Shown: positions 9,639 through 49,348 of the stretch, in pieces
Numbering within the stretch: the first letter of the stretch is position 1
How the letters are laid out: each line of letters starts with the position of its first letter
Assembly (NCBI GenBank): GCA_036172245.1
Contig: JAYWIR010000091.1
Location: forward strand, 62,001 to 126,000
Length of the DNA: 64,000 nucleotides
Reading direction: 5' to 3'
From: Raillietiella orientalis
Taxonomy: Eukaryota
Made by a program: the position numbers and the translations under genes
Notes under the pieces: model-generated
Database searches by the model: none
Told to the model about the DNA's origin: nothing
The model's input: the letters and a program-made list of their open reading frames with translations, nothing else

Positions 9639-10482
9639 CACAGCGGAGATTTGGCGAGGGAGTCAGGAACGAGCGGGCATATCTTTAGTCCCGCGGTCAT
9701 TCCAGGCGTCCCAAAGTCCGACGCCTGTCAGAATTTAAGGCTGTGGCGGAGAGGCAGGCCTGGCAGTCAGGCTCGGCTGGCTTGCTGGTCCATCAGGGCC
9801 AAGACCGCTCGATCCCAGGTCACGTAATCCGCATCGTGCGGGAGTTCTATTCCTCCTTTTACGCGCCACTAACACCGGAGCCTCATTTCGCGCAGCGCCT
9901 GCTGACGCATGGCCTCCCTGTTCTCAAGTAGGAGAATCGTTTCAGGTTGGCAGAACCGTTCACGATGCTAGTGGTCGTCTCTGTCATCAGCAGGCTGGAG
10001 AATAGGTAGGCACCAGGAGAGGACAGACTGCCCGAGGAGCTTTACAAACACTTCGCGCCAGAGCTGGCCTTCCTGGTGCTTACATTAAGTACGCTGATCC
10101 GCGAACACAAGGAAGTTCTCGCCTTGTTCCGGTCAGCAAAAGTACGTCTCCTGCCGAAGTCAGGACACTTACGCAACATTGGCAACTGACGTCCCATCAC
10201 GGTGATGAATGCGGACGCAAGGCTGCATGCCATGTTGTGGACTGAGCGTTTGGGGCGGGTGGTTGCTTCCGTGATCAGTCCGAAGCAGACCTACGCTGTT
10301 CCGCGACGAAGCATGGAGTCAAATCTGCTCCTCGCCAGCACATAGTAGCAGTTGCGACAAGGCAATGCCTAGGAAAGTTAAGGGAGTCTTGCGCTCCTCT
10401 CTGACCAGAAACATCGGATGGAGGGTAGAAGGGACCTTGCGGAAGCCCTTGCAGTCGCGGTCGACTCTCACAAAGCATTCGA
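9639..10482 (+). pseudogene. Decayed ORF2 fragment (linker to RT KAFD) of an E-like LINE
   Basis: Reads FGEGVRNERAYL, AERQAWQSG, FRSAKVRLLPK, VAVDSHKAFD, with many stops. Confidence 0.8.
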
Positions 10483-13400
10483 TTTTCACCCGGATTTCGC
10501 CGAGGCGTTTATTGTAAAATACACATTTACAAAGACATGCAGTGGCTTGACCATTCCTTCAGCCACGCACGAAGAAACACAGAGCGTGCTGGTTCACCGC
10601 TTTGCAGACCGGCACGCACCACTACGGCAGCAGTGGGAAGGGGGAAAAACAAAAAACAAAACAAAAAGAAAAGAATATACTGGGAGGGTACAGGAAGGTA
10701 TCACTGTAGCTGGTGGGGCCGTTGCATCCTTTGCAGGATGCCGGCAAGCTCTTGCTGCATGCTTAAATCCAGGTGGATCCATCGCGACGCTCTCCTCAGG
10801 AAATGGGAGGCTGGCTGGATGGAACCCTAGTCTCGTTGTCCTCCCGTAGCCTTGATCCAAGCGGTGACGATCCAGCGTAGACAGCATAAATCTGCTAACG
10901 AGGCCGCTACCCGAAGGTCGTCGGCAACGAAGAGGGCTTTCAGAGCGTCCCTGAGGTTGCTGCAGGGGATTCCGATGGCCGCGGCAAAGCGAAACCAAAG
11001 GTGCCTAAGGGCAACACAATCCACTAGCAGATGGGGGAGGGACTCCGTTTCCCACACCTGACGCAATTCGGGTCCACCGCTACCCAGGTCCAGTGGTGTC
11101 GGCGGGCGTTGCATGGGAGTCCCCAGTGATGCAACAGGAGAGGCGACTCTTGCCATTTTAAGAAGGGGGTGGAAGAGTTCATGAGAGCTGAGGGCCACAT
11201 CAGATGTTCAATGGGAACATCGAGAAGCGTGCTGCAGCGCAGAAGTCCATTGGAAGGCGTACTCGGGGACGCAGCGTCTGTTAACTGGCCCGTCTTACAC
11301 TCTCCTATCTTCTTCTTTTTCCCGGAGATTGTTACTGAAACCTCCCACTTCGCCGCAACATCGCTGTAGAGATCTTCCATCAGGGAGGGCAACGCAACAG
11401 CGAGGGGGTTCTTCCTGCCCACGCTCTCTTCTTTGGATCCTTCAGGATCTCGCGGAGCGTGCAACATCTGTAATCCCGAAACAGGAAGCTTCGTTCCTCT
11501 TGAGAGCGTTGCCTACCGAACAGTCCCCACGTTCGAACGGCTTCCTGCAACCAGGCACTACCGTTTGCGTGGAGACAGGTGATCCATCCTTGATTTTTGC
11601 TTGCCAGCGCAGCCACCCTCCGTAGCTCAAGCCCAATTCGGTTGATGCGGCTTCGATGGAGTGCCAGAAACAACGTAAGTCCCGTATTGCCGGTGGCTTG
11701 CTGAAGGTGGAGACGTGCAGGGACGCACCAACAGGTGCACCACAACTCCGGCACAAGTGTTAAAATCCGGAACTGGAGCTACAGCCTTAGCCGCTCCAAT
11801 GTCAGGAGGCCGAGACCACCGTTCCGACGCGGAGCGCACAAGTCCTTCAATCGGACTCGGGCCCTCCCGTTGCCCGAAGGCGCGATACGGAGAAGGTCCT
11901 TCGTCCGCTTTTTGTTCCTCTCTGTTGGGGGGCAAACAACAAGCAGGGAACGGAGGAGAGGAGCCGCGGACGTGTTCCAAACCGCGGTCCGTTCAGGCAA
12001 GACAAACCTGTCGCCTTGAAATGGGCCGATCGCCGTCTCTACTTTTGGAGGCAGCCGAACCACGCATCCGCAGGGGAGTAGTCCTCCAACGGCACACCAA
12101 GGTACTTGTAGTACCTCACCGTGGGGATCCCAATGCGGACTCAGTCCTGCTGCCCTACCCACGCCGCACCAACTGGCATCACGGACGACTTCTCACTGTT
12201 CAGCTGAAGACCGGTTCCCCGATTTAGCAGATCGAAGGACCCCTCCATCGCCAAAGACGGGGTGGACATACGGAGTAGCAGCAGAAGGTTGTCCGCGTAC
12301 GCTGAAACCGCCGGCGTACCGGCTCAGTCGTGCGGCAGGTGCGCCAGAGTTTCCCGGTAAGTTCTCAGTACCACCACGAAGTAGGTGCTGAAGAGCAAGG
12401 GACTCAGGCTGTCTCCCTGTCGAATCCCACGCCGCACCGCCACGCCGTGCACGGTCTGCCCGCTGAAAGAACCTTTGATGAGCGCGTCGCGTCAGCAGTA
12501 GCGCAGATAGGCCACTAATGAGGCCAAGAAGTTCAAGCGTTCCAGAAGCTCCAAAAGGAGATTCTTGTTGACGCAATCGAATGCTTTCCGGAAGTCCATT
12601 GCGATCGCAAGCGCTCCTGCCCCCGCCCGACGATCCCACCCCTTGCCGGTACACGCACCGGAATTCCGGCTGCGCACCAAGCTCCTTTCATGTTGCAGCT
12701 CTAGCCAGGTGCATGCGTGGAACAGTTTCGACTTTCCTCGCGACGCAGGTGGTCGACTGTTTCGCCTTCGACCACCAGTTTGTGGGGAAGAGGGCAGCCC
12801 TCCCGAACGGCCACGCGCGAAGCAGTGAAGCCGTGTTGCAGCCTTGTGTAGTCCTCGAAAGGACAAACTTTCGTCCACTGCGCGTGGACCGTTCCGTATT
12901 CCTCCAACGCGGCGCGAACCTGTTCCTTGCGACTCCGCGCGGTAACACCTAACAGGTGGACCACTATGCTGCGGTCCGCCGTAATAAAGAGGAGCCTGCT
13001 TGTCTTCATCACCATGGGGTTTTGAAGCAGTCGTTGTGCCAGCTCTGCTTGTTTGCAGATGACCTAAACGTACTGACACCCGCTGCGGATGGTCATAGCG
13101 CTGAGCTTCTCCTCTTTCACATCGAGAGCGCGCATGCCCTTCTAGAAGGCGCGCGCAATCTCTAAAGAATATAGATTGCCTACCTTGTAGAACAATGAGG
13201 GGATGTACCCCTCCTCTACATTGGCCGACAATCCCGCCGCGGCTGCAGGCGATGGCTCCGACACAACGGTGCTTTACGCCCGCGCTGCAGCGGGGACCGA
13301 TTCTGAGGGGGCGGATGCCCCCACCTCCATCTCCTATGGGGGCGAGGTTGCCGCCGCTCCTTGGCTCTCCATCGCCTCTGGGGGCGGCGTTGCCGCTGCA

Positions 13401-13510
13401 CCCTGGCCATCTCTGGTGGTCGCGTCATGCATCCCTGCCTGATGTACCGTCGAACCACGCAACGCTCGCACTAGATGAGACTTTCTGGCAGTAGGAGCAC
13501 CGAGAAAGGG
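10483..13510 (-). mobile_element. Family E LINE with a large internal deletion (ORF1 fused to RT near 12740)
   Basis: Flanked by CTCACAAAGCATTCGA at 10467-10482 and 13511-13526. 3' end AATAAACGCCTCGGCGAAATCCGGGTGAAAA. ORF1 is homologous to 26733..28148. RT motifs MDFRKAFD and RQGDSLSP. Confidence 0.85.
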
Positions 13511-13526
13511 CTCACAAAGCATTCGA

Positions 13527-15258
13527 TTTTCACCCGGATTTCTCCGGGTCGTTTACTAAAAAATAAACTTTATAAAGAAATCATTTATGGCTGTGGCAAT
13601 GCTCCAGCCAGAAGCGAAGAACCAAGGAGCCTGCCAATTCACCTGTTTCTAGACCGGTACGGTCCATCATGGCAGCCAGGGAAAGGGGAAAAACAAAAAA
13701 CTGAACAAAAAGAAACAAAGGGTGGGAGGGAACGGAAAGGGATCACTGATGCTGCTGGGGCCGCATCATTTCTCTCAGGATGCTGGCAAGCTCTAGTTTG
13801 TTGTGAATATCCAGGTGTGGCCATCGCGACGCCCTTCTCAGGAATTGGGAGGCGCACTGGATAACATCCTGATCGCTAGGTCCTCTCGTCGCCGTGCTCC
13901 ATGCGACGATGATCCCACGAAGGCAGCACAAGGCTGCTTTCGAGGACGCTGGCCGCAGGGCGTCGGCAACAAAGAAGGCAAAAGCCTTCTTTGTTGTGCG
14001 TCCCTGGGGTTGCTGCAAGGGACACCGATGGCCGCGGCAAAGCGGAACCAAAGGGGCCGAAGGGCAACACAATCTACAAGGAGGTGGGGGAGGGACTCCC
14101 GTTCCCCGCACCTCACACAATTGGGATCCACCGCTCCCCGGTTCCAGTGGTGTCGACGGGCATTGCAGGAGAGTCCCCTGTGCTGCAACAGGAATGCCGA
14201 CTTTTGCCATTTTAGGGGGAGGATGGAAATGTTTATAAGAATCGGGGGCCACTTCAGATGTTCAATCGGAACATCCAGCAGCGCTCTTCAGCGCAGAAGT
14301 TTATTAGGAGGCGTATTCGAGGTCGCAGCATCAGTTAGCTGGCCCGGCTTCTACTCTCTTTGCTTCTTCTCCTTCCCGGAGATTTTTATTGTAACCTCCC
14401 ACTTCGCCGCAACATCGCTGTCCTGATGTTCTACTTGGGAGTCCAGCGCAGCAGCGAGGGTGGTTCTTCCTGACCAGGCTCTCTTCTTAGGATCCTCCAG
14501 GATCTCACGGAGCGTGCAACTTCTGTAACACCGAAACAGGAACCTTCATTCCTGTTGGGAGGGTTCCATGCCGAACTGTCCCCCCGTGCGAACGGTTTCC
14601 GGCAACCAGGCACTACCGTTCGCAGGGTGACAGTTGATCCATCCTTGATTTTTTCTTGCCAGCGCAGCCACCCTCCGTAGCTGAAGCCCACATCGATTGA
14701 TGCGGCCTCGATGGAGTGCAAGAAACAACGTAAGTCCCGTCATGCCGGTGGCTTGCTGAAGGATTAGACGTGCAGGGACGCACCAACAGTTGCACCACAA
14801 CACCGGCACAAGTGTCAAAATCCGGAACTGGAGCTTCACCCCAGCAGCACCAATGTCATGATGTCATGACCACAGTATTGACGCGGAGCGCACAAGTCCT
14901 TTAAGCAGACTCGGGACATTCCGTTGCCCCAAAGGGCGATACGGAGGATGTCCTTCATCCTCTTTTTGATCCTCTCTGTATGGGGGCAAACAAGAAGCAG
15001 GTAACAGAGAAGAGTATCCGCGAACATGTTGCAAACCGCTGCCCGTTCAGGCAGAAAAAACCTGCCGCCTCGGAACGGGATGATAGCCGTCTCTACTTTT
15101 TGAAAGCAGCCGGACCACGCTTCCGCAGAGGAGTAGTCCCCCAACGGCACACCAAGGTACTTGAAGAACCTCACCATAAGGATCCCCAAACAAATCCAGT
15201 TCTGCTGCCCAACCCACGCTGCACGTGCTGGCATCACGGACGACTTCGCCCTGTTCCA
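13527..15258 (-). mobile_element. 3' part of a second, tandem family E copy
   Basis: Hairpin terminus ACCCGGAGAAATCCGGGTGAAAA. Colinear with 10483-12200. Confidence 0.85.
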
Positions 15259-18200
15259 TTCGCCTGGTCGGCCTAGCAGCGCAGTCATCAGGCCTTCCGA
15301 GTTGTTCAACAACAACGCGTAGGCCCTATGCGCCGAATACGGCCAGTCATTCCAGTGAGTGGCAATGTCCAGAAGGTGTCGCGTATCCATGATTTCTATG
15401 TAGTGTGCAAGCGACTTCATCCCGGAACTGCCTTCATCCCTGGGACGACACAGGGGTTTAACTCGGACTCTTGGGCGATAGTCGCCCCACAGTGTTTTCC
15501 TCTGAAGCTTGTCGCACTTCCTCGTTTTGTCCTTGTTCATCCTCGCGAAGGCTGCCAAAAGAGCACTTTTGAAAGGATTACTCCGTTCCATATGTTGGAC
15601 TTTCGCTTCATTCCAAGGTCCGTTCGTGTGTACTTGGCTGCTTCTTTTGCCGTGTTCCCTAGGGTCTCGGTCCACAATAGCTTCGACGCGGTGACGTCGC
15701 CAATGAAGACACCCAGGTACTTGGCCTTGTCCACCGTTCGAAATCCTCTCCCTGCTAGAGTGGAGAGATCGAGGATTCCAACGGGCAAGAGCTGGCTTTT
15801 CTACGCGTTGATCTTTAGATCCAGGCCTTGATCCATCAGGTCTACCACATGCAGAAGCGCTCGTTGATTTCTCTCTCCCTTGAGAAAGAAGAGTAGATCA
15901 TCAGCGTATGCCAGATGGGTAAAATGCCGCCCATCGATTGTTATGCCTTGCATTCGTCCGCTTTTCTCAATAAAGGACGACAACGCCTCCATGGAGATGG
16001 CGAACAGCATCGAACATAGCAAATCGCCCTGCCGGACTCCCCGTTCTATCCGGATTGGTGCCGTCTCCTGGCCGTTGATTTTGATTCGGCAGTACTGGTT
16101 CGAGAGTAACACCCTCACGAAGTGGTTGAAGTGTTCCAAAAGGCCTAGCTTCCCCGGAACCTTCAGCAGCATCCTATGGTCGATGGAGTCGAAAGCCTAA
16201 TCCATGTCAGTGAACTCCAGCGCCAGGTTCTCACCGACATATCGGCTGAGCCATACTATGACCTGGGCGAACTTGACATTCTCCGACATGTGGCGACCTT
16301 AGACAGCGCATGTGAGGACCGGAGAGATCAGCTTCGTCATGACCCTGCCTAAGCGGTTGGACCAGATATTCGCCAACCACTTCGCATCCGAGTTCAGGAT
16401 CGAGATTGGCCTCCATTGAGCGACATACGTGAGGTCTCCTCCTTTTGGCAACAATCTCATCTGAGTCTCGTAGAAGGACTGTGAAAGTCTTCCTTCTTCG
16501 CGGATGCAGAGGGTCAACTGGTGGAACAAACGCAGGTAGGCATGCAGGTACCGCTTATAGTGAGTGATGGGTACGCTGTCAGGGCACGCTGCCACGTCCT
16601 TGCTTAGTTGACCAAACGCAGTCTTCACCTCATCTTCGAAGAACTCCTCCTCCAGTCTGTTCCGCTGGTGATCGTCGGTCCTCTTCTCGAGGTAGCTCAG
16701 AAAGACTTCTTGACTTGAGCGACATAGATGTTGTCGCCTGAAGTGTTTCGTGTAATGCCTGTGAAAGGCATCCACGATGTCCTCAGACGACTGTCGCTTT
16801 TGACCGTCCTACTGGATGCAGAAGATATCTGTTGCCAGATTTTCCTGCTCCAGCACGCCGACTTCCAATTTTCTGTTCTGAAATTCGTACCGACTCTCGT
16901 ACTCATCGAAGTACTTTGAGAGTGAGCGATCTTGGATGTTCAGCTGCCGGTACGCCTCCTGCCTCAAGCGCCTTTCCCCAAACTGCATGCTTGCAAACAG
17001 GTGTAACCTGTGTTTCAGGCTGTCCCAGTCGGCGACTCTTAGGATTGTTGTTGCCTTCAGAATCGTCTACAGGACAGCCTGATATCCGGGATGGGTTTCG
17101 AACCAGGCGTGCATGCTCATGAGCGCCGCCCTGGTGCCTTGCCTCCGCCGAGGATTCTTCGTTCTTAAGGAAAACCGCACCAGGGGGAGATCGGACACCG
17201 TGGTCATAAAGTTTTGATAACCCTGGATGCGATTTTCAAGTTCGGTGCTGTGCAGGACGTGATAGATCGCCTTGTGACTTGCAGTTCGAAACACCAGTCC
17301 GAACTCTTCAATAGCCGCCGATACGCCGTCCTTCTTCTGGCGTCTTCGGAGTGAGTGATCTCATCCAATATGTTAAGATCGTCAGAAACAATCACGACGT
17401 CCTTGGGGGCAACCTTTTCACGGAGTGCTGCATGCAGCGCCTCCGCACAACGATGTTTCAGCCTGTGCGGCCCGTACACGTTCACCAGCATGAGGTGTAA
17501 AGTAGCGGACCAGCCCAGTCGCGCGCCGATGATTCGTTCGGGTGGGGGACAGAACACTTCCAGAATAGTGGGGGCCAATTTTTTCTTCATTAGGACCGCC
17601 ACTCCCTGCGTGTTTTGTTCTCCCTCGCTGACGAACATCTGACGGTTGAATCGCCGTTCCATTGGCGGCCTAATATCGAGACCCATCTTTTGGGTCTCCT
17701 GCATGCTGACTATGTCTTGTGCGATGGTCCGCACAATCCTTTTTCTTTTTCTTCGGTCGACCACAACGTTTACATTCCAGGAGGCGATGTTCAGCCTGCT
17801 CGTGTTTGATAGGGAAGAGGCCATAAAAAAGGAAGACGTATTTCTTGGCCTTCCTGAGCTTCTTCTGTCTGAGAGAGCGTGCGCTTCCAGACAATGAAGA
17901 AGCAGCGGGCTTCTCGCTGTCGGAGTCACTCTCTTTTCCGGTGAGGTCGGTTACTTCCACCTCCTACGTAGAATGTTCGGCTTGCGCAATGAATTTGGCA
18001 GATAGCGTTTCTATCTCGACCTTGGCGCAGAAGCTCGCCTTTATGTCGAAAAGCTGTTCCTCTAGCTTCTCGCGTTCGGTGTCCTCCACAAGCTGGTTGA
18101 CCTTTTCCAGTGCATTGCGAATCTTCTGCTAGATTTTTTCTTGCTGGGGACCGCTCGGCACATCTAGGACTTTATTAGCCAGTGATGCCAGCTCCTCGGT

Positions 18201-19766
18201 AGATTGCACGGCCTCCTGCGACACCGGTGAGGCTTCGGCTTTTTTTTCTTCCGTGCCTTTCCGCGCTACCTACATCTTCTCGCCTTCTTGCTTTTCTTTT
18301 TCTAAGTTAACAGGTATTTCTTGCTCCTTGATGAGCATCCTCCTCTTTCCTTCCTTCCCTAACTGTATAAAGCCTTCTTTCGATACCATGACGGCTTCCT
18401 TCACCTTGTTCATCCTTCCTGCCTTTTAAGGCTGTTTTGCCTCCTTGGTGTTTCTCTCTCTCACGGGAGAGAGACTTCGAATCCTTCTGCAGTTTGCAAA
18501 CTCCGGACAGCTCCATTTGGCATATCCGTGTTTCTTGCAGAAGGAGCACACCTCCGGCTGCGGGCAGTTTCCCACTTGAAGTCCTACTTTGCAGCAGCGA
18601 AAACAACGACAAGTTGGGCAAGCGCCGGACCTGTGGCCGAACTGCTTGCACCCGGTGCAGAATATCGGTTGTTGCCGGTAACGCACGTTCACTCCCTGGG
18701 ATTGTTCGTCAATGAACGCCAACCCAGGTATAACAGCTCCCTCCTTCATCTTCATCTTGCCGAGCATGTCGCCAGAAAATATCTTTTCGGAGATGTTCTG
18801 GAAGTTAAGGTCCAGAAATTCCCCATACTGCTCCAGGAAGTTCCACACCGTTAGTTGCGGTGTGAGGATGGAGATGCCCTTCAGAAAGGCGGTTGTGTAT
18901 GGCATTCCGTTAATACCACAAACCATCCTTTCTTGTATATTGATCCCCTTCTGGATCAATCGCTCTCTAATATTTTCACAGTCTGTGAAGACTGTTAACC
19001 CGTTATTTGCCGGTATGATCGCCTGTATGCGATCAAAATTGATATCCGTTTAATCGAGTGACAGATACACCTCCCTGGCATTAGGAAATTTACTCAGCCC
19101 AGTCTTGAAAATGATGGGATTCAGATTCGTCTCTAAATCCACGATTGGCCGATCCACCGTTTGGGTTTTGCCGCATAGCGGCTTCCCGAATCTTCTTGGT
19201 GGTTGGACACTCGCTTGTCCAGCCGCCACCGACGCATAGGAAAAGGGTTGCGCCGCCGCAGCCGAACAAGATGCCGTCTCGCCCTGCACCGCGTGGACGC
19301 CCGCGAGTCCTGCTTGGGACGCCGCCGCCGCAAGCGCAACCTTCGACGTCGCCACCGTTGCCGCCGCGGGCGGCACCTTCGGCATCGCCGCCGCAGGAGC
19401 GACCTTCCCCGCCGCGGGCACGACCTCCGGCGTCGTCGCCGCGGGCAAGACCCTTGGCATCGCCGCCGCCGGCGCAGCAAAGCCCGCCGAGGGCGCGATC
19501 CTCCGCATGACTGCCACCGCCTCGCCGTTGCCGCACGTTACCTCCATGGCTTCCATTGGGGACGACGGTCTCTCCACTCCTCCTCTAGTTGCCTGCATCC
19601 TGACAGCTGGTCTTGCTGCACGGGACCACTGCTGGTCTTTTGCCGCGATCTCCTAGCCGCTTCTTTTGTAGTTTCGTCTGGGAAACTTCCTTTCTCCGGG
19701 CACACACGAGCACAAGTAACTGATTAAGTTGTCGAGCGCACAATAATTCGAGCCGCGAAGCGAGTT
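15259..19766 (-). mobile_element. Family F LINE (divergent lineage, three-knuckle ORF1), 3' end deleted
   Basis: ORF1 starts MQATRGGVERP. EN NIASWNVN; RT GVRQGD, LAYADD, KYLG. 5' end AACTCGCTTCGCGG. Confidence 0.88.
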
Positions 19767-19780
19767 CGCTGTCTCGGCAG

Positions 19781-21649
19781 TTTTTCCCAAGTCCCACGAG
19801 GGATGATGTAAGTTTATTTTTCTAAAATTTTTCTATAAAAACATTCACACTACAATCTCATCCATACCATTAGCACTTTTTTTTACCACTATGAAGTCCT
19901 TGGGTTCTCACAAGTTCTGCACTCATGGTGAGTTTCCTGCTGTTTGGTCCCGGGCGTCGTCTTCTATCCTCTTCAGGATGAATCGGTACGTCCAGGCTTG
20001 GATTTTCCAACAGTTTCTAATGCCGATTTCCCTCTTCAGGAGCCCTTGTAGGATCTCCATCGGTGGTGCGGCTCTTCTGGCTTTCCTCATTTTCCACCAC
20101 CGCACAAGTATGGCGGTGATGAAGAGGGCGATGGTCGTCCTCACCATGGGATTGTAACAAGGAACATTACCATCCCCTTGAAACATCCCGGCGAGGATCT
20201 CCATTAAGGACCTGCTAGTGAGTCCGATGACCATTTTCAGGATCAGCCAGCCATGCAGCAATGTGGGACACGTCAAGACGTGAAGTCTCGTGTCGATGTC
20301 TCCACATGCTGTGCAGTCTCGATCTTCCCTTCTTCCGGTGTAGTGCTGCAATCGGGACCCACTCTGGATTCCTCCATGATAAAACATCAGGAGGTCATCC
20401 TGGGTGCCCGGCGGAAGGTCACTCCTCAATAGCGTCGTGCCAATCGCTAACAGGTTGATCCGGTCACTCCCGTAGCGATCGGCGGCTTCCTGGAGGGCAT
20501 TAATATCACTGTGTTCTTCTTGAATTAGTCATCGGAGGTTTGTTTTGGTTACCCTGGACCACGCAAAGTCCTTGTGATTGAACCACACTTCGCGAGTCAT
20601 GTGGGTAAACCTTCTTAACATCATCTCTATATACCTGAGTATACGAGTGTGATGTAGGTACCCTGTTCGTTTTCACTCCTGGATTCGTTGAAGGGTAACT
20701 CTGGACCGCTGGTGGATCCAGCTTCTCGTGTCCGGCTGGACAGGAAGCATCGAAGGGATCACCAGGATGAACTCGTCATGCCAGAGTTCAATACTTCTCG
20801 GCACGATCTTTATTTTGTGGTTTCGCACCAGCCGTTGGTTCCTCGTCCAGGTTGGGTCGATTTTTTCCTGTGTTTCAGGCAATCAGTTGACGACTCTTCG
20901 GATTGTTGTTGCCTTCAGAATAGTCTCCAGGACAGCCTGATGTCCGGGATGGGTTTCGCACCAGGCGTGCATGCTGATGAGCTCCGCCCTGGTGCCTTGC
21001 CTCTGCCAAGGATTCTCCGTTCTTAGGGAAAACCGCACCAGGGGTGATCGCACACCGTGGTCATAATGTTTTGAAAACGCTGGATGCGATTCCCAAGTTC
21101 GGTGCTGTGCAGGACGTGATCGATCGGCTTGTGACTTGCAGTTCTCCACACCATTCCGAATTCGTCGGATAACCGCCGATACGCCGTTCTTCCTCTGGCG
21201 TCTTCGGAGTGAGTGATCTCATCCAATGTGTTGAGATCGCCAGCAACAATCAGGACGTCCTTGGAAGCAACGTTTTCACGAAGTGCTGGATGCAGCCCCT
21301 CCGCACAACGATGTTTTAGCCTGTGCGGCCCGTACACGTTCACCAGGATGAGGTGAACAGTAGCGGACCAGGCCAGTGGCACGCCGATATTTCGTCCGGG
21401 TTGTGGACAGAACACTTCTAGAAGAGTGGAGGCGAAGTTGTTCTTTATTAGGACCGCCACTTCCTGCGTGTTCCGTTCTTCCTCGCTGACGAAAAACTGC
21501 CCGTTAAATCTCCGTTCCATTTGCTGACTAATCTCGAGACCCATGTTGTGGGTCTCCTGCAGGGACACTATTAACTGATTAAGTTATCGAGCGCACAATT
21601 AACTGATTAAGTTATCGAGCGCACAATACTTTGAGCCGCGAAGCAAGTT
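19781..21649 (-). mobile_element. Family F copy with both termini but two large internal deletions (ORF1 and RT lost)
   Basis: F 3' end at 19781 and 5' end at 21649. Deletion junctions near 20868 and 21570. Confidence 0.85.
21571..21626. repeat. 28-bp tandem duplication TTAACTGATTAAGTTATCGAGCGCACAA x2
   Basis: Read directly. Single copy in the other F 5' UTRs (about 19717 and 62151). Confidence 0.9.
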
Positions 21650-38000: not shown

Positions 38001-41000
38001 CGCAAATAACGGTGTGGAACTTTTTGGAAAAGTATGGGGAAGTTTTGGACATGAAATTCCAGAACTTCTCCAAAAATATATTTTCTGGCGACATGTTCGC
38101 CAAGATGAAGATGAAGGAGGGAGCTGTTATACCTAAGTTGGCGTTCATTGACGAACAATCCCAGGGAGTGAACGTGCGTTACCGGCAACAACCGATATTC
38201 TGCACCGGGTGCAAGCAGTTTGTCCACAGGGCCGGCGCTTGCCCAACGTGTCGTTGTTTTCGCTGCTGTAAAGTGGGACATCAAGTCCCAAACTGCCCGC
38301 AGCCGGAAGTGTGCTCCTTCTGCAAGAAACACGGACATGCCAAATGGAGCTGTCCGAAGTTTGCAAACTGCAGAAGGATTCGAGGTCTCTCTCCCGTGAG
38401 AGAGAGAAACACCAAGGAGGCGGAACAGCCTCAGAAGGCACGAAGGATGAACAAGGTGGAGGAAGCCGTCATGGTATTCAAAGACGGCTTCATACAGGTA
38501 GGGAAGAAAGGAAAGAGGAGGATGCTCATCAAGGAGCAAGAAATACCTCTTAACTTAGAAAAAGAAAAGCAAGAAGGCGAGAAGATGAAGGTAGCGCAGA
38601 AAGGCACGGAAGAGAAAATAGCCGAAGCCTCACCGGTGTCGCAGGAGGCCGTGCAATCTATTGAGAAGCTGGCATCACTGGCTAATAAACTCCTAGATGT
38701 GCCGAGCGGTCCCAAGCAAGAAAAAATCCTGCAGAAGTTTTGCAATGCACAGGAAAAGGTCAACCAGCTTGTGGAGGTCACCCAACGCGAGAAGCTAGAG
38801 GAACAGCTTCTCGACGTGAAGGGGAACTTCTGCGCCAAGGTCGAGATAGAAGCGCTATCTGGAAAAATTCATTGCGCAAGCCGAACACTCTACGGAGGAG
38901 GTGGAATTAACCGACCTCACCGGAAAAGAGAGTGACTCCGACAGCGAGAAGCCCGCTGCTTCTTCATTGTCTGGAAGAGCACGCTCTCTCAGACAGAAGA
39001 AGCTCAGGAAGGCCAAGAAATAGGTCTTCCCCTTTTATTGCCTCTTCCCTATCAAACGCCAGGAGGCTGAACATCGCCTCCTGGAATGTAAACGTTGTGG
39101 TCGACCGGGGAAAAAGAAAAAGGATTGTACGGACCATCGCACAAGACAAAGTGAGCTTGCAGGAGACCCACAAGATGGGTCTCGAGATTAGGCCGCAAAT
39201 GGAACGGCGATTCAACGGTCAGATGTTCGTCAGCGAGGGAGAACAAAAAACGCAGGAAGTGGCGGTCCTAATCAAGAAGAACCTGGCCACCACTATTCTA
39301 GAATTGTTCTGTCCCCAACCCGGACGAATAATCGGCGTGCGACTGGGCTGGTCCGCTACAGTTCACCTCATCTTGGTGAACGTGCACGGGCCGCACAGGC
39401 TGAAACATCGTTGTGCGGAGGCGCTGCATGCAGCACTATGTGAAAAGGTTGCCCGAAGGACGTCGTGACTGCTGCTGGCGATTTAAAAATATTGGATGAG
39501 ATCACTCACTTTCAAGACGCCAGAGGAAGGACGGCGTATCAGCGGCAATCCTAAATGGTCGGACTGGTGTGGCGAACTGCAAGTAACAAGCCGATCGATG
39601 ACGTCCTGCACAGCACCGAACTTGGGAATCGCATCCAGGGTTTACAAGACATTATGACCACGGTATCCGATCACCTCCTGGTGCGGTTTTCCCTGAGAAC
39701 GAAGAATCCTCGGAGGAGGCAAGGCAATAGGGCGGTGCTCATCAGCATGCCCGCCTGGTACGAAACCCTCCCCAGACATCAGCCTGTCCTGCAGACGACT
39801 GTGGAAGAAACAACAATCCGAAGAGTCGCCGACTGGGACAGCCTGGAACACAGGATACACCGGTTTGCAAGCATGCAGTTCGGAAAAAGGCGCTTGAGGC
39901 AGGAGGCGTACCGGCAGCTGAACATCCAAGATCGCTCACTCTCAAAGTACTCCGATGAGTACGAGAGTCGGTACGAATTTCAGAACAGAAAATTGGAAGT
40001 CGGCGTGCTGGAGCAGGGAAATCTGGCAACAGATATCTTCTGCATCCAGTAGGACGGTCAAAAGCGACAGTCGTCTGAGGACATCGTGGATGCCTTTCAC
40101 AGGCATTACACGAAACACTTCAGGCGACAACATCTATGTCGCTCTAGTCAAGAAGTCTTTCTGAGCTACCTCGAGAAGAGGACCGACGATCACCAGCGGA
40201 ACAGACTGGAGGAGGAGTTCTTCGAAGATGAGGTGAAGACTGCGTTTGGTCAACTAAGCAAGGACGTGGCAGCGTGCCCTGACAGCGTACCCATCACTCA
40301 CTATAAGCGGTACCTGCATGCCTACCTGCGTTTGTTCCACCAGTTGACCCACTGCATCCGCGAAGAAGGAAGACTTCGACAGTCCTTCTACGAGACTCGA
40401 ATGTGATTGTTGCCAAAAGGAGGAGACCTCACGCATGTCGCTCAATGGAGGCCAATTTCGATCCCGAACTCGGATGCGAAGTGGTTGGCGAATATCTGGT
40501 CCAGCCGCTTAGGCAGGGTCATGACGAAGCTGATCTCTCCGGTCCTCACATGCGCTGTCTTAGGTCGCCACATGTCGGAGAATGTCAAGTTCGCCCAGGT
40601 CATAGTAGGCCTCAGCCGATATGTCGGTGAGAACCTGTCGCTGGAAATCTCTGACATGGAGAAGGCTTTCGACACCATCGACCATGGGATTCTGCAGAAC
40701 GTTCTGGAGAAGCTAGGCCTTCCGAAACACTTCAGCAACTTCGTGAGGGTGGTACTCCAGAACCAGCACTGCCGAATCAAAATCAACGGTTAGGAGACTA
40801 CACCAATCCGGATGGAACGGGAGTCTGGCAGGGCGATTCGCTAAGTCCGATGCTGTTCGCCATCTCCATGAAGGCGTTCTCGTCCTTTATCGAGAAAAGC
40901 GGACGACTGCAAGGCATAACAATCGATGGGCGGCATTTTATCCATCTGGCATACGCTGATGATCTACTCTTCTTTATCAAGGGAGAGAGAAATCAACGAG

Positions 41001-44000
41001 CGTTTCTGGATGTGGTAGACCTAATTGATCAAGGCCTGGAAAGAGAGATCAACGCCTAGAAAAGCGAGCCCTTGCCCGTTGGAATCCTCGATCTCTCCGC
41101 TCTAACAGGGAGAGGATTACGAACGGTGGACAAGGCCAAGTACCTAGGTGTCTTCATTGGCGGCGTCACCGCGTCGAAGCTATTGTGGTATGAGATACTA
41201 GGGAAAACGGCAAATGAAGCAGTCAAGTACACCCGAACGGACCTTGGAATGAAGCGAAAGGCCAAAATATGGAACGGAGTACTCCTTCCAAAAGTGCTCT
41301 CCTTGGCAGCCTTCGCGAGGATGAACAAGGACAAAAGGAAGGAGTCCGACAAGCTGCAGAGGAAAACACTGTGGGGCGACTATCGCCCAAGAGTCCGACT
41401 AAAACCCCTGTGTCGTCCCAGGGATGAAGGCAGTTCCGGGATGAAGTCGCTTGCACACTACATAGAAATCATGGATACGCGACACCTTCTGGACATTGCC
41501 ACTCACTGGGATGACAGGCCGTATTCGGCGCACAGGGCCTTCGCGTTGTTGTTGAACAACTCGGAAGGCCTGATGACTGCTCTGCTAGGCCAAGCAGGCG
41601 AATGGAAAAAAATCGTCCCAACCTAGACGAGGAAGCAACAGCTGGTGTGTAAGCGTAAACTCAAGATCGTGCCCAAAAGTAGTGAACTCTGGCAGGACGA
41701 GTCGATCCTGGTTATCCCTTGGATGCTTGTTGTAACGCTGGACACGAGAAGCTGGATCCACCAGCGGTCCAGAGTTACTTTGCAACGGATCCAGTAATGG
41801 CGCCGAGGAAGATACCTACATCACTCTCGTGTACTTCGGTACATAGAGATGATGTAAGGGAGGTTCACCCATCACACCCGTGAGATGTGGATTAACCACA
41901 ACGACTTTGCGTGGTAGAGGGTAACCAAAATGAACCTCCGTAGGATGATCAAGTATGAAGATAAAGACACCAGCGCCCTCCAAGAAGCCGCCGACCGCTA
42001 CGGGAGCGATCGCGTCAACCTGCTAGCGATCGGCACGACGCTCTGGAGGAGTGACCTTCCCCCGAGGACCCAGGACGACCTCCTGATGTTTTATCATGGA
42101 TGAATCCAGAGTGGATCCCGATTGCAGCACTACACCGGAAGAAGGGAAGATCGAGACTGCACAGCATGTGGAGACATCCACACGAGACTTCACGTCTTGA
42201 CCTGTCAAAGATTGCTTCATGACTGGCTGATCCTGAAAAGGATCTTCGGACTTACCACCAGGTCCGCAATGGAGCTCCTCGCCGGGTTGTTTCAGGGGGA
42301 TGGTAATGTTCCCTGTTACAATCCCATGGTGAAGACGACCATCGCCCTCTTCATCACCGCCATACTCGTGCGGTGGTGGAGTATGAGGAAAGCCAGGATA
42401 GTCGCACCACCGATGGAGATCCTACAAGGACTCCTGAGAAGGGAAATCGGCATTAGGAATTGCGGAAATATCCAAGCCTGGACGTACCGATTCATCCTGA
42501 AGAGGATAGAGGACGGCGCCCGGGACCAAACATCAGGAAACTGACCATTAGTGCAGAACTTGTGAGAACCAAAGGACTTCATTGTGATAAAAGAAAAGTG
42601 CTAATGGTATGGATGAGATTGTAGTGTGAATGTTTTTATAGAAAAATGTTAGAAAAATAAATTTACCCCACCCTTCGTTTGACTTGGGAAAACTGTCTTG
42701 TTGGGAAGGATGCAGCTGGTTGCTGCATGTTTTGAGGCAACGCAACGCTGCTTTCGTTGGCATATTTCGACGAACCTGCAGACGCCTTCGTGAGGTTTCC
42801 GACTGAAGCCTACGAAATGGACAGAGCGCTCATGGAGACGGTTACCACGCAATTTTCTTTCGCGTGTCCTCCTTTCGCCTTTTCGCACGGAGCGACTGGT
42901 TTTACAGATCCCATTTCGCTAGTAGCGTTTCCGCGATCAGCTACTGCGACAGTAACGGTACGCGCGGAGCCCTTTCGTTTTTTTATAAATGGCTTCCCTG
43001 CCGCGCGATTGCCGTTTCAGGGCTTTGATGCTGAGCAAGCAAACTTTGAGACCGCGTTCGGGCCCTTTTTATCTTCGGCCTTTCGCGTTCCCCCCTGTTT
43101 TTTTTTTTTGAGGATGCTGTTTTCTCCTCTGCGCACTCTTTGGCACGCCGGAGTTTAGCATTCTCCTTTTTTTCTTTATGTCGGGGCACTTTCTAATTTC
43201 GTTCCCGGACTCCTTACAGTAGCGACACTTCGGGGAAGAGCATTCTTTACCCCGATGCCCTACTTTGCCGCATTGCTCGCACGCGCGAGTTTTGCCAAGG
43301 AACCACAGGTGAACGACCGTGCCGCTGACCTGTTGCGCGGCAGACAGTGTGCGGTTGTTAAAAACGGTTACCCAAACCGCAGCAAATCCTGTGTGGACGG
43401 AAGGGAATTTCCTGTACGAACTCTCCTTCCTCCACATCGCATGAACGGTGGCGACTTTCCCCAACGCGTCCTGTCGTTGATCTCCGGCTCTACTTCCGAG
43501 AGAACAGCGACAAAAGACTTGTCCATCGCGGAAGGAAAAACTTTTTTTCCGCGGATGGACTAAGGAGTGCGGAGGAGACTCTGCACAAGTGCAGCCTGCT
43601 TGCATCGTTACTTCACATATCCTAATGCTGGAACAGGCATGAGTGCTATGAGGTCCTCCTCTCGCACTCCCACACCGTAGAATTCGTCGGCGAACTCCTC
43701 CCCAGACTTAGCTAGTCCACTTACGTTGTAGCGAAGAGCAGGCTTGTTGCCCTGGGCTTCATAGGCTTGCATCTCCGCCTGGACGGGGAGGCATCCTTGT
43801 ACGGCTGCAGAAGCAACCACGTCCGCAAAGCTCCTGGTCAGTGGAGCGGGGCTCGAACACGTTGTCGCCATCCCTCCAGCTGCGAGAAGTTCCTCAACTA
43901 CAATTCGAGGTCTTCTATGCTGCGTTGTTCACTGCTCATCCTTAGGGATGTGCAGTGAAATGCGTAAACACAACCAAACAGCGGAACCACGGAGGGACAC

Positions 44001-44022
44001 GAAATCTCGTCCGACTCGTATG
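35026..44022 (-). mobile_element. Second family A-like copy, 3'-deleted, with ORF1 split by the F insertion at 37307-42692
   Basis: ORF2 35026-36584 is closely similar to 3665-5203. ORF1 pieces at 43871-42693 and 37306-36584. 5' end CGAGTCGGACG near 44018. Confidence 0.82.
37307..42692 (+). mobile_element. Full-length family F LINE, disabled
   Basis: 5' end AACTTGCTTCGCGG. ORF1 has three knuckles (CTGC, CFRC, CSFC). ORF2 has EN and RT (AYADD). 3' end AATAAA...GACTTGGGAAAA. Confidence 0.9.
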
Positions 44023-44345
44023 AAGGCGAACATTAAAATCGCTTGCAACCAGATGGGCATTCCGCACGCCTGCCTCAGTCAGCCAGTCGCGCCGGAGGGC
44101 AAAGAAAAATTCTTTGCTTGCCCTCCTGTTCGTCAGGTCTGCGCTGCTCGGGGCGTACACGGTCGTGACGATCAGGTCAATGTAGTCGGACCACCTGAGG
44201 ATCAGCTGGACGACACGACCGTGATTGTCGAAACGCACGCCGCGCGCCGTGGCCTCGTCGCCCACCTGCTAGGCTGGCCAAAGCAGGTGGGCGACACCGC
44301 AACTTCTCGGTGTCCCACACCGATACCACAGCCTCCCTGCGGAGG
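44023..44345 (-). pseudogene. Family E-type EN fragment, host of the A-like insertion
   Basis: Reads RLWYRC...VYAPS...AHLVASDFNVR. Paralog of 48900-49205. Confidence 0.8.
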
Positions 44346-46201
44346 TAGGCGCGACCACACCCTCGGACGTCCCGTTTTACGCGCTGACACCAATGGAGGC
44401 GGGGGATCAGTTGCTCGACGCACCGACCCGTCCCCTTCCTAGGGTCCCGCCCCTACAGGTGGCTTACGCCGCAATGCCACTTTCTCAGGATTAAAACCTG
44501 GGCTATTCTATAGCCGTCGGATCCGCGCGGCCATTTGGAATGTCAACGGTGTGCGCGATGAAGGCAGCAGACGAGATACGGCCGACATTCTGCGTGAGCT
44601 CGACTTGGCCCTGCTGCCGGAGATCCACGTGATCTCCACAGCGGACGTCCAGGAGATCCTATCGATCGCGGAGGGTCGGTTGTACTGGCAATGCAGCGCC
44701 CGCAACACCCGTGATGTCGCGTTTTTTGTGAAGTCAGCTTGCGACGCTGCCGTCAAGGGCGTGTTGTTTGATGACGACGGTCGGGTCGGTCAGCTGATTC
44801 TTAGCTGGTCCGACTCGATCGACCTCATTGTCAGGAGTGTGTAGGCCCCCAGCAGAAAAAAAGGGTACGGGGACCGCACCAGTTTCCTGGAATTTCTGAA
44901 TCGCGAATGGATGGCGGACACGAACGTGCAAATGGATCACCTAATAGCATGAGATTTCAATCTCTGCCGGCTAAGAGGTGAGCCGGAAACACAGGAGAAC
45001 GCGATGAACCAGTTGTGCTGCGCCATGCGTGCGCGCCACTTGTTCGAGGGAGAGGACTGAATATCCCACAGCATCGATCGCGTCTTCGTCGACGCTGACC
45101 TGTGTTCACATGTCGAAAACGGGGCAAGATTGCGTCGGCGCTGTCGGACCATTCCCGGTTAATGTTCGAGATGCGGCCGCGCGACAACGGACTGACATCG
45201 AGGGCGTGGCGTCTGCCGGCCGACTGGACGCGACTCTCAGGTGCGAAGGAACATCTTCGCAAATTCCTGAAAGCAGTCACGCTCGAGAGCTTCGAGCACT
45301 GGGACCTTCTCAAGAAATCAGTGCGGGAGTTCTGCGAGCAGTTTTGCCTGAACCGCTTTCCCCAGGGATTTGGCGAAGGGCCTGGCAACTATCAGGCCTT
45401 TTTACAGGCACGTCGGTACAAGTAAACCCCTATTGTCCGTCGCCTGGCCGAGTACCGCGCTGGGGCCGAATGTTAAGCCCGGCAATCCGAGTCGGCCAGC
45501 TTGCTGGACCAGGGCCGGGAACGTTTTCTTCGGCGGCGGTACGGTATCTTATGAGGGGATCTTATACCTCCCTTTATTCCAGGGCGCCCCCGGAGCGAGA
45601 CGCCTCTCGGCGCTTGCTCCCAGAAATTGCCCCGGCATTAAGGGAGGAAGAGAAGGAAAGCCTCGACGAGCCTTTTAGCATCGGCGAAATTCACGCCGGT
45701 ATCAAAAGGCTTAAGAGGGGTAAAGCTCCAGGGGAGGACAGGTTGCCCGCGGAGTTCTTTCAGATTTTCGCAAAAGAACTCGCCTTCCTGCTGCTCAAGT
45801 TGACGAGGCTAATCCAAGATGAAGCTGATCTACTTGCTTAGTTTCGGTCAGCCAGAGTGAGGCCCCTCGCGAAAAAGGAAGACCTGAGAAAACTCAACAA
45901 TTGGCGTCCGATCACAATTGTAAATGCGGACGCCAAGCTGATTGCCGGGCTGCGGGATTCGCGATTGTCACAGGTAGCCAATACCATAATTAGCCTCGGA
46001 GCAGACTTACGCTGTTACCGGGCGAAGTATGGAGGTCAACCTGTTCTTTGCTGCCACATGGTTGCATGTGCAGAGGTGCGATAATGAACGACATGGGAGA
46101 ATCGCCAACTCCACTTTGGGGCAGCCAGTCGGGCATGAAAGCGAGATTCGGGCGAGGAAAGGAGCCTTAGCGATTGCGATCGATCTGTCTGAAGCGTTCG
46201 A
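44346..46201 (+). pseudogene. Family D ORF1 end and ORF2 up to RT KAFD
   Basis: Reads RIRAAIWNVNGV, SIDRVF, LSDH, GFGEG, KAPGED, NWRPITI, IDLSEAFD. Confidence 0.83.
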
Positions 46202-49200
46202 TTTTCATTCGGATTTCGCTGGGGCGCTTATTAATTAATAAACTTTTATAAAGACCTGCAGTGGCTGGACCATTGCTCCAGCTACGCAGGAAGAAACATA
46301 GAAGCTTCCAAGTCACCGATTCGCAGACCGTAAGGTCTACCACGGCAGCAGGGGAAAATGGGAAAAAGAACTAAAAACAAAAGAAAAAAAAAGGAAAAGT
46401 GGGAGGGTACGGGAAGGGATCACAGTTGCTGCTGAGGCGGTTGCATCCTTCTCAGGATGCCGGCAAGCTCTTTCCGTATGCTTGGATCTAGGTGGGGCCA
46501 TTGCGACGCTCGTTTCGAAATTGCGAGGCTGGCTGGATGGCACTCTGGTCTCGTGATCCTTCCGTAGCCTTGCTCTAGGCGGCGACGATGCCGCTTAGGC
46601 AGCAGAGGGCTGCTAACAAGGCTGCAGGCGGAAGGGCGTCGGACACGAACAGGGCTTTTAATGCGCCCCTGGAGTTGCCGGAGGGGATTGCGATAGCCGC
46701 AGCAAAGCGGAACCAAAGTGGCCGAAGGACAACACAATTCACAAGCACGTGGGGAAGGGACTCCCGTTGCCCACACCTGACACATTTAGGGTCCACCGCT
46801 CCCCAGGTCCAGTAGTGTCCACGGTAGTTGCAAAGGAGTCCCCAGTGCTGCAACAGTTCCGCCGTTTCTTGCCATTTTGAGAGGAGGGTAGAGGTTTTTA
46901 GAAGTACAGAGGTCCACTTCAGACGTTAAATGGGAACATCAAGCAGCGCGCCCCTTCGCAGAAGTCCATGAGGAGGCGAACTCGGAGAGGCAGCGTCAGT
47001 CATCTGATTCGTCTTACACTCTCCCACCTTTTTCCTATTGCCCGAGATTGTTACAGTAACCTCCCACTTCGCCGCAACATCGCTGTCCAGATCTTCCATC
47101 AGGGAGGGCAGTGCAGCAGCGAGGGCGTTTTTCCTGCTCACGCTCTGTTCTTTGGATTCTCCAGGAGGACACGGAGCGTTGAGCTCCTGTAGCCCCCAAA
47201 AATGAACCTTCGTTCCAGTTGGGAGCATTGCATTCCGACCTGTCCCAACGTGCAAACGGTTTCCTGCAGCCAGGCACTATTGTTCGCATGGCGACAGGTG
47301 ATCAATCCGTGGTTTCTCCGTGTCAGGGCAGCGACCCTCCAAAGTTGAAGTCCGCATCTGTTCACCTGGCAACGGAGTACGAAAAAAGACCTGAGTCCAG
47401 GTTTGCCGGTGGCTTCCTGGAGAAGGAGACGTGCAGGGACGCACCAACAGGTGCATCACAACTCTGGTACGAGTACCATCTTTCGGAACTGGAGCTGAGG
47501 CCCAGACGCTCCAATGTCAGTAGGCCGAGACCACCGTCCCGACGCGGAACGCACAAGTACATTAGGCGAAATCGCGTCCTCCCGTTGCCCCAAAGAACGA
47601 TAAGGAAGAGGTCCTTCGTCCGCTTTTCAATCCACTCTGTGGGGAAGCAAACAAAATGCGGGGAATGGAGGAGAGAAGCCGCAAACGTCTTCCAAACCAC
47701 GGCCCGTTCAGGAGGGAGAAACCTGCCGCCTTGGAACGGGCCAATCGCAGTCTTTACTTTCTGAAGGCAGTTGGACCAAGCTTCCGCAGGGGAGTAGTTC
47801 CCCAACGGCACATCAGGGTACTTGAAGTACCTCAGCGTACGGATCCCCAAACGGATCCAGTACTGTGGCCCGGCCCACGCCCCACCAACTGGCTTCACGG
47901 ACTACTTCGACCTGTTCACCATGAGTCCGGTTCCCCGATGCAGCAGGTCGAAGAACTCCTCGACCGCCGCAGCCGGGGTGGACATAGGGAGCAGCAACAG
48001 AAGATCGTCCGAATACGCTGAAGCCGCCGGCGTACCGCGGTAGTCGTGCGGAAGGTGCGCCAGAGTTTCCCTGTACGCTGTCAGTACCAGCTCATAGTAG
48101 GTACTGAAGAGCAAGGGACTCAGGCTGTCACCCTGTTGTATACCACGGCTTTTGTATTTCACGATGGCCGAGATGATCTCACCCATCGTGAAAGGCTCGT
48201 CAAGAGACTTTTTCCCCTCTTCCCCGATCGCAGGAGCGCCTTCCGGAAGCAGGAGTCGTGAGAAGTCCCGCTCGGTAGGCGTTCTTGCGTACAGAAAGGA
48301 GTAAAAACGCCGCAGCAGACCGCGGATCTAAACGGATTCCGAATGCTCCTGGCCCTGAACGTCCAGCAAGCTGGCCGATCCAGACTGCCAGGCTTGCCTC
48401 TCGGCTCCCGCTTTGTATTCCGCCAGCCTGCGGATGTCGAAGGTCCTGACGTAAAGGCGAGCCTGCAGATAGGCTCGTTCGTTTCGTACCTCGTCCCCAA
48501 ATCCCACAGCTAGGCGGTGCAGAGGGAACTGGTCGCAGAACACCTGGACCAACCGCTTGAAGCGGTCCCAATCCTAGAGTGTCTGCATCCTGAAGCTCCG
48601 TATAAACGTGCGGAGATCTTCCGTGGAGTCCGAGAGCTTCAGCCAGTCCCCTTGCAAACGCCACGCTGACGAGGAGGGGGCCCTGTCACGCGGAAGGATT
48701 TCAATCACGATTGGTCGATTGTCGGACAACTGGCTCGGTAACATGCAGCGCCTGCCCACACGAGCGCACAGCTGCTCGTCAAGGAACACGAGATGGATGT
48801 TGTCCTCCATCCCTGGTACACTGGCCAACAAAATACAAGTGTGAACCGCCGCGCACACCTCGTTGACCAGGTCCCGCTCGTGATTCGGCCCATCCGGTTT
48901 CAGACGAACGTTAAAATCGCCGGCAACCAGATGGGCATTCCGCACGCCTGCCTCGGTCAACCTGTCGCGATGGAGGGCAAGGAAAAATTCTTTCCTGGCC
49001 CTCCTGTTCGTCAGGACCGCTCCACTCGGGGCGTAAATGTTTGTGACGATCAGGTCGATCGAGTCAGTCCAACTAAGAGTCAGCTGGCCGACACGACCGT
49101 GATCGTCGGACCGCACTCCACGGACGGCGGCCTCGCTGGCGAGCCGAAGCTGGTAGGTGACACCACAACTTCTCGAAGTTCAACACCGATACCACAGCCG

Positions 49201-49234
49201 CCCTCCAAAGATGCGTTCGATCTCCTGCGCTCGT
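46202..49234 (-). mobile_element. Family E LINE from EN to the 3' end, with an RT deletion near 48150
   Basis: Degenerate hairpin terminus at 46202-46234. Motifs GDFNVR and QQGDSLSP...AYSDD. Confidence 0.85.
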
Positions 49235-49348
49235 ACAGTGCAGACGTGTTTCCGCGTCTATCCGCGCCAACGATCGGGCAACTTTGTGCCTGCGTTTTTG
49301 CTCGCACTTGTGTGTTCCTGTGCAATCTGCCAAGTAGCATAGTGCAAC

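Follow-up and report, generated by a model that had tools for sequence, protein, structure and literature searches.

A LINE family of Raillietiella orientalis that probably targets the KAFD codons of the reverse transcriptase gene in other LINE families

In this work, we analysed a 64-kb stretch of the genome of Raillietiella orientalis (assembly GCA_036172245.1, contig JAYWIR010000091.1, positions 62,001 to 126,000; hereafter, the window), which has a G+C content of 52-59% and consists almost wholly of non-LTR (long terminal repeat) retrotransposon sequence on both strands. Among the long interspersed nuclear elements (LINEs) found there, the family that we call E is probably a sequence-specific LINE that integrates into the reverse transcriptase (RT) gene of other LINE families. 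All the results on E come from this one window and from three to four E events; positions are numbered from the first base of the window, and the features are collected in Table 1.

A first-pass annotation had proposed that E lies antisense within the RT codons for Lys-Ala-Phe-Asp (KAFD). The termini clearly bear this out, since the KAFD codons adjoin 3/3 of the complete E 3′ termini and 2/2 of the E 5′ termini. The complete 3′ ends lie at 10483, 13527 and 46202, and immediately before each of them the plus strand reads ..TTCGA; with these bases the K/E-A-F-D codons end, in an RT gene on the strand opposite to E. At the junction 10482/10483, the plus strand reads ..GTCGACTCTCACAAAGCATTCGA up to the junction and TTTTCACCCGG after it, and at 46201/46202 the corresponding sequences are ..GATCTGTCTGAAGCGTTCGA and TTTTCATTCGG; translated in frame, the flanks end in ..ALAVAVDSHKAFD in the first host copy (host1) and in ..ALAIAIDLSEAFD in another (host3). 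In its own sense, E ends with ..CCGGGTGAAAA. The two 5′ ends lie at 13510 and 28212, each then followed by the KAFD codons. The one at 28212 shows a start motif common to the families B, D and A, and is followed by AACCGACGTAAAGCTTTCGA and then CTGCGTC.., reading ..NRRKAFDCVVHELL of a third host copy (H), which continues ..CVVHELL... A profile of the E 3′ end run over the window found no further complete E terminus and one truncated copy, E5, which is devoid of the last ~80 bases and has no terminus to score.

The occupied sites share the 11-mer RAAGCNTTCGA and differ at wobble positions (AAA/GAA; GCA/GCG/GCT), thus indicating that the flank is host sequence and not a part of E. By our own arithmetic, the chance that two further random insertions would match the first to the base is about (1/6200)^2, taking a 3.1-kb open reading frame 2 (ORF2) and both strands. 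According to Kojima's rule, a LINE is target-specific if independent copies have the same flank in more than 20% of cases (PMC4494074); in the window, the flanks are alike at 3/3 3′ ends and 2/2 5′ ends, in at least three host copies.

To number amino acids (aa), we used as a ruler the ORF2 of the LINE A1, the same ORF2 being the tblastn query by which the hosts and the E copies were placed. The A1 ORF2 (2117-5236, minus strand) matches Exo_endo_phos (E 2.5e-11) and RVT_1 (E 8.3e-18), and its best solved relative is human L1 ORF2p (E 5e-45). Within its motif ..AVAVDLRKAFDCV.. the residues K-A-F-D are aa 581-584; VDLRKAFD of A1 aligns with IDAEKAFD at chain residues 599-606 of human L1 ORF2p, and the D at aa 578 with D600. 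This agrees with the earlier assignment of the first D of DxxKAFD as the first catalytic Asp of RT. Compared with 5.8 billion proteins, the A1 ORF2 found a best identity of 29%, the nearest proteins including those of fish and fungi. Against metagenome contigs it yielded just two short loci with 38-40% identity, which were uninformative; a scan of metagenome contigs for the E 3′-terminus pattern gave 0 matches, as did a scan of genome contigs for the 26-mer 3′ end common to A and B.

Judged by its sequence, E itself is a non-LTR retrotransposon of the L1 superfamily, with ORF1 followed by an ORF2 encoding an apurinic/apyrimidinic endonuclease (APE) and RT. E3 aligns in a single frame with aa 62-424 (APE and linker) and aa 633-850 (RT) of the A1 ORF2, while E1, E2 and E3 together cover aa 523-1006 in tblastn. 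Non-LTR hallmarks are also present: the 3′ ends stop at ..GGGTGAAAA, E1 is bordered by a 16-bp duplication, and copies are internally deleted or truncated. E1, E2 and E3 are 75-80% identical in DNA and form a clade in the tree (support 100/99). E1 joins an E 5′ part (62% aa and 77% nucleotide (nt) identity to E4) to an E 3′ part and keeps its own unoccupied KAFD site. E3 has lost its KAFD codons by an in-frame deletion of ORF2 aa ~425-632. Both E1 and E3 are deletion derivatives; the perfect duplication around E1 means that this copy was either mobilised in trans or lost its internal part only after it had integrated. E3 is cut at aa 62-66 by a copy of family B, B2, and the 14 bases 49221-49234 are E3 sequence doubling as the target duplication of B2. 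The stretch 48028-49233 was considered as a separate family, "X", and this was ruled out because it continues E3 in frame. In E4, too, ORF2 is interrupted at aa 62-66, here by the 3′ terminus of a family B element; this copy retains an intact ORF1 of 474 aa (26736-28157). Recent activity is plausible in view of the perfect duplication of E1, the intact ORF1 of E4, and the intact ORF1 and ORF2 of A1.

The target-site duplication, previously put at about 16 bp, is exactly 16 bp for E1 (16/16 identity between 10467-10482 and 13511-13526) and may reach 20 bp for E4. Its right copy reveals a junction that the first-pass annotation did not contain: the sequence 13511-13526 lies between the 5′ terminus of E1 and the 3′ terminus of E2, so that two E copies stand in tandem at one host site. 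They are only ~80% identical, which indicates two separate insertions; E2 must have arrived first, with E1 entering the regenerated site later. On its other side, E2 ends at 15254 against a rearranged block of family C.

The geometry of the junctions fits target-primed reverse transcription. The E machinery, most likely its APE endonuclease, would nick the host sense strand at ..RAAGCNTTCGA or no more than a few bases beyond it; at this site, the codons for K/E-A-F-D lie six residues after the first catalytic Asp, in RT motif A. The freed 3′ OH would prime reverse transcription of the E RNA from its short A tail, with the host sense strand ending ..AAAGCATTCGA-3′ and being extended by the complement of the E tail (TTTTCACCC..). 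Priming from a nick in the host sense strand would explain why E is always antisense to its host. A second nick 16-20 bases upstream, on the other strand, would give rise to a target-site duplication of 16-20 bp. The decisive bases appear to be those upstream of the nick, inside the duplication, such that the site would survive insertion and could be reused. Indeed, when E1 inserted, E2 already made up the downstream side of its site, and the recognition bases are thus probably upstream, within the duplicated stretch, which also accounts for the tandem E copies being separated by the duplicated target. As the target encodes a conserved motif, it is present in many LINE families, and each E insertion would destroy the RT of its host.

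Specificity might instead be provided by the RNA. E copies already present in KAFD sites would be transcribed beyond their 3′ end into the flank; such a read-through transcript, whose tail is the complement of ..GCATTCGA, could anneal to a nicked or breathing KAFD site and thereby fix the start of reverse transcription, the endonuclease being perhaps only weakly specific. Such RNA-DNA pairing is compatible with sequence-specific integration by E and does not exclude it; as the main source of specificity, we regard it as rather unlikely, although it may contribute. It is favoured by the flank just after the E 3′ end, which is the exact complement of the 3′ end of the primer strand, and by the 11-mer that E carries in its own RT gene. 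Furthermore, co-transcription with the target has been described as strengthening the target-specific integration of R2 and R1-type elements (PMC4494074). However, the 3′ end of the RNA would seem to be a defined one, given that an AATAAA-like signal lies ~20 nt before the end and that all nine LINE 3′ termini in the window stop at a fixed ..GGGTGA(N)AA(A). The wobble differences would make a read-through tail from one site mispair at another, and the sister families land at quite different sequences despite their near-identical 3′ ends, which points to specificity encoded in a protein.

The next question is whether the three junctions are independent. If one or a few ancestral insertions had been followed by segmental duplication of the host-plus-E junction and subsequent divergence, the common position would need no targeting. 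The window does contain large duplicated composites (15254-26266 vs. 49220-64000, 92-94% identity), and in blastn a single high-scoring segment pair runs through host and E (10010-12431 vs. 45725-48147). Across the junction, however, the identity falls: over 150-450 bases on each side, global identity is 0.79-0.80 for E1/E3 and 0.65-0.67 for their hosts, where the shuffled baseline is 0.60. The same step is seen in blastn, with 79% over 1955 nt for E1/E3 and 65% over 343 nt for host1/host3. In tblastn with the A1 ORF2, host1 covers aa 304-584 (9644-10483) and host3 covers aa 3-584 (44467-46202), both alignments stopping on the D of KAFD; their proteins are 45% identical over 261 aa, and host1, host3 and H each occupy a long branch of their own in the tree. 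Moreover, the three target sequences differ at many bases while the E1 duplication is matched at 16/16, the E copies have different internal deletions, and the tandem copies E1 and E2 are only 80% identical at one site. Copying of an ancestral junction is therefore very improbable.

H begins with 20 bases (28213-28232) that encode N-R-R-K-A-F-D, its KAFD codons being 28222-28233; these target bases differ from those of host1 at 7/20 positions and from those of host3 at 8/20 (counted by eye). Two pairings were considered and rejected on the same bases: a single E (E3 plus E4, spanning the B array) might have divided one element into host3 and H, but only 12/20 bases match, and host1 and H might likewise be the two parts of one element, but only 13/20 match. 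The step in identity at the junction and the differing target bases show that the three hosts are not copies of one locus. The earlier view of the hosts as distinct families holds for host1 and host3; H is, by its target bases, another copy and probably belongs to a third family. The description of host1 as E-like did not stand: besides its separate branch, it has 41% aa identity to the N-terminal part of the E ORF2 vs. 50-53% to A and B. The left edge of host1 is the 5′ junction of another inserted LINE, D2. Taken together, the data indicate at least four insertion events in three host copies belonging to at least two host families, and probably to three.

That E merely prefers a region or LINE island (e.g., a centromere-like nest), with the exact junctions produced by recombination or microhomology at conserved stretches, is scarcely credible: the whole window is indeed LINE sequence and several junctions are plain rearrangements with microhomology, but recombination between inverted KAFD stretches would, by its geometry, fuse host RT to E RT and not to an E 3′ terminus, E1, which retains its two termini and is bordered by a perfect 16-bp duplication, bears the signature of target-primed insertion, and the junction base does not vary between cases.

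Several points weigh against sequence-specific integration of E as the full explanation. The sample is small and local, comprising three host sites and four events in one island that has segmental duplications of 92-94% identity. H (aa 575-1005) shares no overlap with host1 and host3, which end at aa 584, so that the differing target bases alone mark it as another copy. The window holds no intact E endonuclease, whose reading of the sequence we infer, and the position of the first nick is ambiguous by up to ~4 bases because on the host sense strand the E tail, AAAA, appears as T, and at some sites ..TTCGA is followed by T as well. E occupies 3/8 of the recognisable RT motif-A sites in the window; the other five are empty, two of them with the same 11-mer as the occupied sites, and occupancy is thus far from saturating. 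Finally, there is E5, which lies antisense against A2 (35017-37084, minus strand) at aa 528, ~170 bases short of the A2 KAFD. It may be a further E event blurred by a ~250-bp deletion across the original KAFD junction, with CCA microhomology. Its 5′ edge (34168/34170), however, shows no KAFD-like bases and adjoins aa 137 of an E-like ORF2, and its 3′ edge has no terminus, the later rearrangement being an assumption.

The first-pass annotation had also reasoned that the hosts cannot easily mutate away from a target overlapping a catalytic motif. This rationale is a proposal rather than an observation. Empty sites carry the 11-mer of the occupied ones, and among the eight motif-A sites in the window we saw no sign of host escape by synonymous change. 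The rationale is weakened by the targets of the sister families, EQAQE and FG/E in ORF2 and PTRQ/E in ORF1, which are not known catalytic motifs. This suggests that landing in multicopy LINE DNA may matter more than the catalytic motif.

The sister families have closely similar ends. Nine 3′ termini in the window have in common AATAAAC.., a CCCGG/CCGGG hairpin of 5 bp and, after it, GTGA(N)AA(A), and compensatory changes in this conserved hairpin were found at 0/5 pairs among the nine; six 5′ ends share a ACAGCGGACGTG-like start. All the recognisable true termini (15/15) fit a family-specific site. Family B lies antisense at ORF2 aa 62-66 (..EQAQE) of E copies, its 3′ end being ..GGGTGAGAAA and the flank each time TCTCCTGCGCTYGT, and looks site-specific for E. 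The 3′ end of B1 at 26244 adjoins E4, the 5′ end of B2 at 49235 adjoins E3, and B2 and B4 stand in tandem with a 14-bp duplication between them. Families D and F occupy, in antisense orientation, the position directly behind the FG codons (ORF2 aa 306-307) in three hosts, with a duplication of ~19 bp: F1 (3′ end 874) in a copy of family D, F2 (3′ end 33660) in an E-like copy, and D2 (5′ end 9637) in host1. F1 and F2 are identical at 0.78 and their hosts at only 0.65-0.69; F may be the 3′ part of family D. Family C is a distant LINE with 25-29% aa identity to the A1 ORF2. In a B copy, it has inserted in antisense orientation behind the PTRQ codons of ORF1 (PTRQ/E), with the flank GACTCGGCAG and a 10-bp duplication, and the same 10-mer also separates tandem C copies. 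The 3′ flank of C3 is the same codon position in an A-like ORF1, so that C is found in two host families; the C target site in B2 is intact. A1, in sense orientation, interrupts the GDFN codons within the endonuclease domain of a family D copy (1290-1297, 7204-7211) with a 7-8-bp duplication, TTTCAAT; this is a single event, again at a conserved catalytic motif. Thus, B, D/F and C each show a fixed site of their own in LINE ORF1 or ORF2, and A probably does so too.

Table 1. Positions of the LINE copies, insertion sites and RT motif-A sites in the window
Feature	Position	Strand	Description
Host1	9638-10482	+	LINE ORF2 fragment, aa ~304-584 (A1 numbering); ends on D of ..VAVDSHKAFD
Host3	44343-46201	+	Family D LINE; inter-ORF region and ORF2 aa 3-584; ends on D of ..AIAIDLSEAFD
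Host H	28213-30333	+	LINE; ORF2 aa ~575-1005 and own 3′ untranslated region (3′UTR)
E1	10483-13510	minus	E copy with internal deletion; 5′UTR, ORF1 N-part fused to ORF2 aa ~523-1006, 3′UTR
E1 target-site duplication, left	10467-10482	+	16 bp, K-A-F-D codons included
E1 target-site duplication, right	13511-13526	+	Exact copy of the 16-mer; also target flank of E2
E2	13527-15254	minus	Second E copy, 3′ part; ORF2 aa ~710-1003 and 3′UTR
E3	46202-49220	minus	ORF2 aa 62-424 and 633-1006, 3′UTR
E4	26245-28212	minus	E copy, 5′ part; 5′ start motif, ORF1, ORF2 aa 8-66
E5	34170-35024	+	E 3′ fragment without last ~80 bases; adjoins A2
A1	1297-7203	minus	LINE; intact 672-aa ORF1 and intact 1040-aa ORF2
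Unoccupied KAFD site of A1	3486-3496	minus	
Unoccupied KAFD site of E1	12577-12587	minus	
Unoccupied site of B1	24025-24035		QAFD
Unoccupied site of C3	40662-40672		
Unoccupied site of B2	52957-52967		
Nine 3′ termini	835-874, 1297-1336, 10483-10522, 13527-13566, 26205-26244, 30294-30333, 33621-33660, 46202-46241, 55141-55180		
Family B sites	26244-26258, 49221-49235, 55180-55195		
D/F junctions	874/875, 33660/33661, 9637/9638		
Family C sites	56543-56552, 62205-62214, 19771-19780, 42693-42700, 50584-50593		

Apart from insertion, the island grew by segmental duplication. Composites of C and B are duplicated at 15254-26266 and 49220-64000, and also at 37278-42695, with 92-94% identity and extra internal deletions, and B1 and B4 carry the same C insertion. 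Plain rearrangement junctions are found at 15254, 34168, 35017-35024 and 44343, those at 34168-34170 and 44343 being probably deletions or rearrangements. At 44343, the 5′-truncated edge of host3 stands against an E-like ORF2 at aa ~70, which fits no family-specific site. At 30333/30334, the 3′ end of H, ..CCCGGGTGTGAA, is joined to an equally oriented A-like element whose sequence begins within ORF1 (aa ~222, A1 numbering); at ORF2 aa 122, this element switches to family F sequence, which sets in at aa 706.

Target-specific LINEs and LINEs that nest in themselves (Tx1, Zepp, Cnl1) are already known. In the Tx1 clade, ORF1 has RNA-binding domain(s) and CCHC knuckle(s), and ORF1 of the families in the window may be CCHC-type: the B2 ORF1 gives a weak zf-CCHC match (E 0.0064, below the Pfam cut-off), and the Atlas neighbours of the E4 ORF1 include CCHC and ZCCHC3-like clusters, which we take as a lead only, Atlas look-ups having returned only generic LINE ORF2 and CCHC-ORF1 neighbours. 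Just as E, the members of the Tx1 clade are APE-type LINEs of the L1 superfamily that insert into a fixed sequence in multicopy DNA, including other transposons (PMC4494074). Tx1 inserts into piggyBac Tx1D, Tx1-Mar into Mariner-N4_AMi, Tx1-8_Crp and Tx1-4_AMi into LTR retrotransposons, Keno into U2 small nuclear RNA genes, and Kibi and Koshi into microsatellites (PMC4494074). The targets reported there are thus DNA transposons, LTR elements, small RNA genes and microsatellites, whereas that of E is LINE coding sequence. Moreover, the E target is a codon block for a conserved protein motif common to LINE families, so that one element can parasitise several.

Zepp and ZeppL of green algae and Cnl1 of Cryptococcus are L1-type elements that insert into their own copies and form nested tandem LINE-only clusters (PMC8226300, PMC3446292, PMC9942834). 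E resembles them in the insertion into existing LINE copies, the LINE-only clusters and the tandem arrays. According to the same sources, however, these elements choose their own copies in tandem orientation, while E inserts into other families, antisense and at one exact base; the orientation and host rule of Zepp does not hold for E. The passages on Zepp and Cnl1 compared here give no codon-level target, whereas the sister families in the window divide LINE genes into different landing sites.

With R1, R2, TRAS and SART, E shares exact-site, target-primed insertion into a conserved multicopy sequence, and these elements, too, are known to re-enter a site in tandem and to leave 5′-truncated or deleted copies there. 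Their targets, however, are genes or repeats needed by the host, while that of E is the catalytic gene of another selfish element. Homing endonucleases, inteins and mobile introns are comparable by analogy only, as they also occupy conserved, hard-to-change coding positions; by an unrelated mechanism they splice out and leave the host gene functional, whereas E destroys the host RT. A search of the open-access literature brought to light neither a LINE with the conserved RT-motif codons of other LINE families as its target nor a set of sister families among which LINE genes are shared out as separate sites.

Few LINEs are sequence-specific, and these have been studied intensively, since they show how a retrotransposon can spread without damage to its host and since they serve as templates for site-directed gene insertion. 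If the above conclusion is true, E would clearly exemplify how a single selfish element can parasitise and disable several others, with a target that is renewed by every burst of any LINE family. The chances seem about even that the related LINE families of the window form a guild, living almost wholly within each other's sequences and each having evolved an exact landing site of its own (KAFD for E, GDFN for A, after FG for D/F, aa 62-66 for B and after PTRQ for C); such hyperparasites would together build and renew a LINE-only island, possibly centromere-like, while sparing host genes. If confirmed, the sister families with near-identical termini and different sites would be a natural series for mapping how the DNA specificity of an APE endonuclease or of ORF2p changes. 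The landing of LINE families within one another's genes would, if true, offer a base-level mechanism for the assembly of LINE-only islands such as the Zepp-type centromeric clusters.

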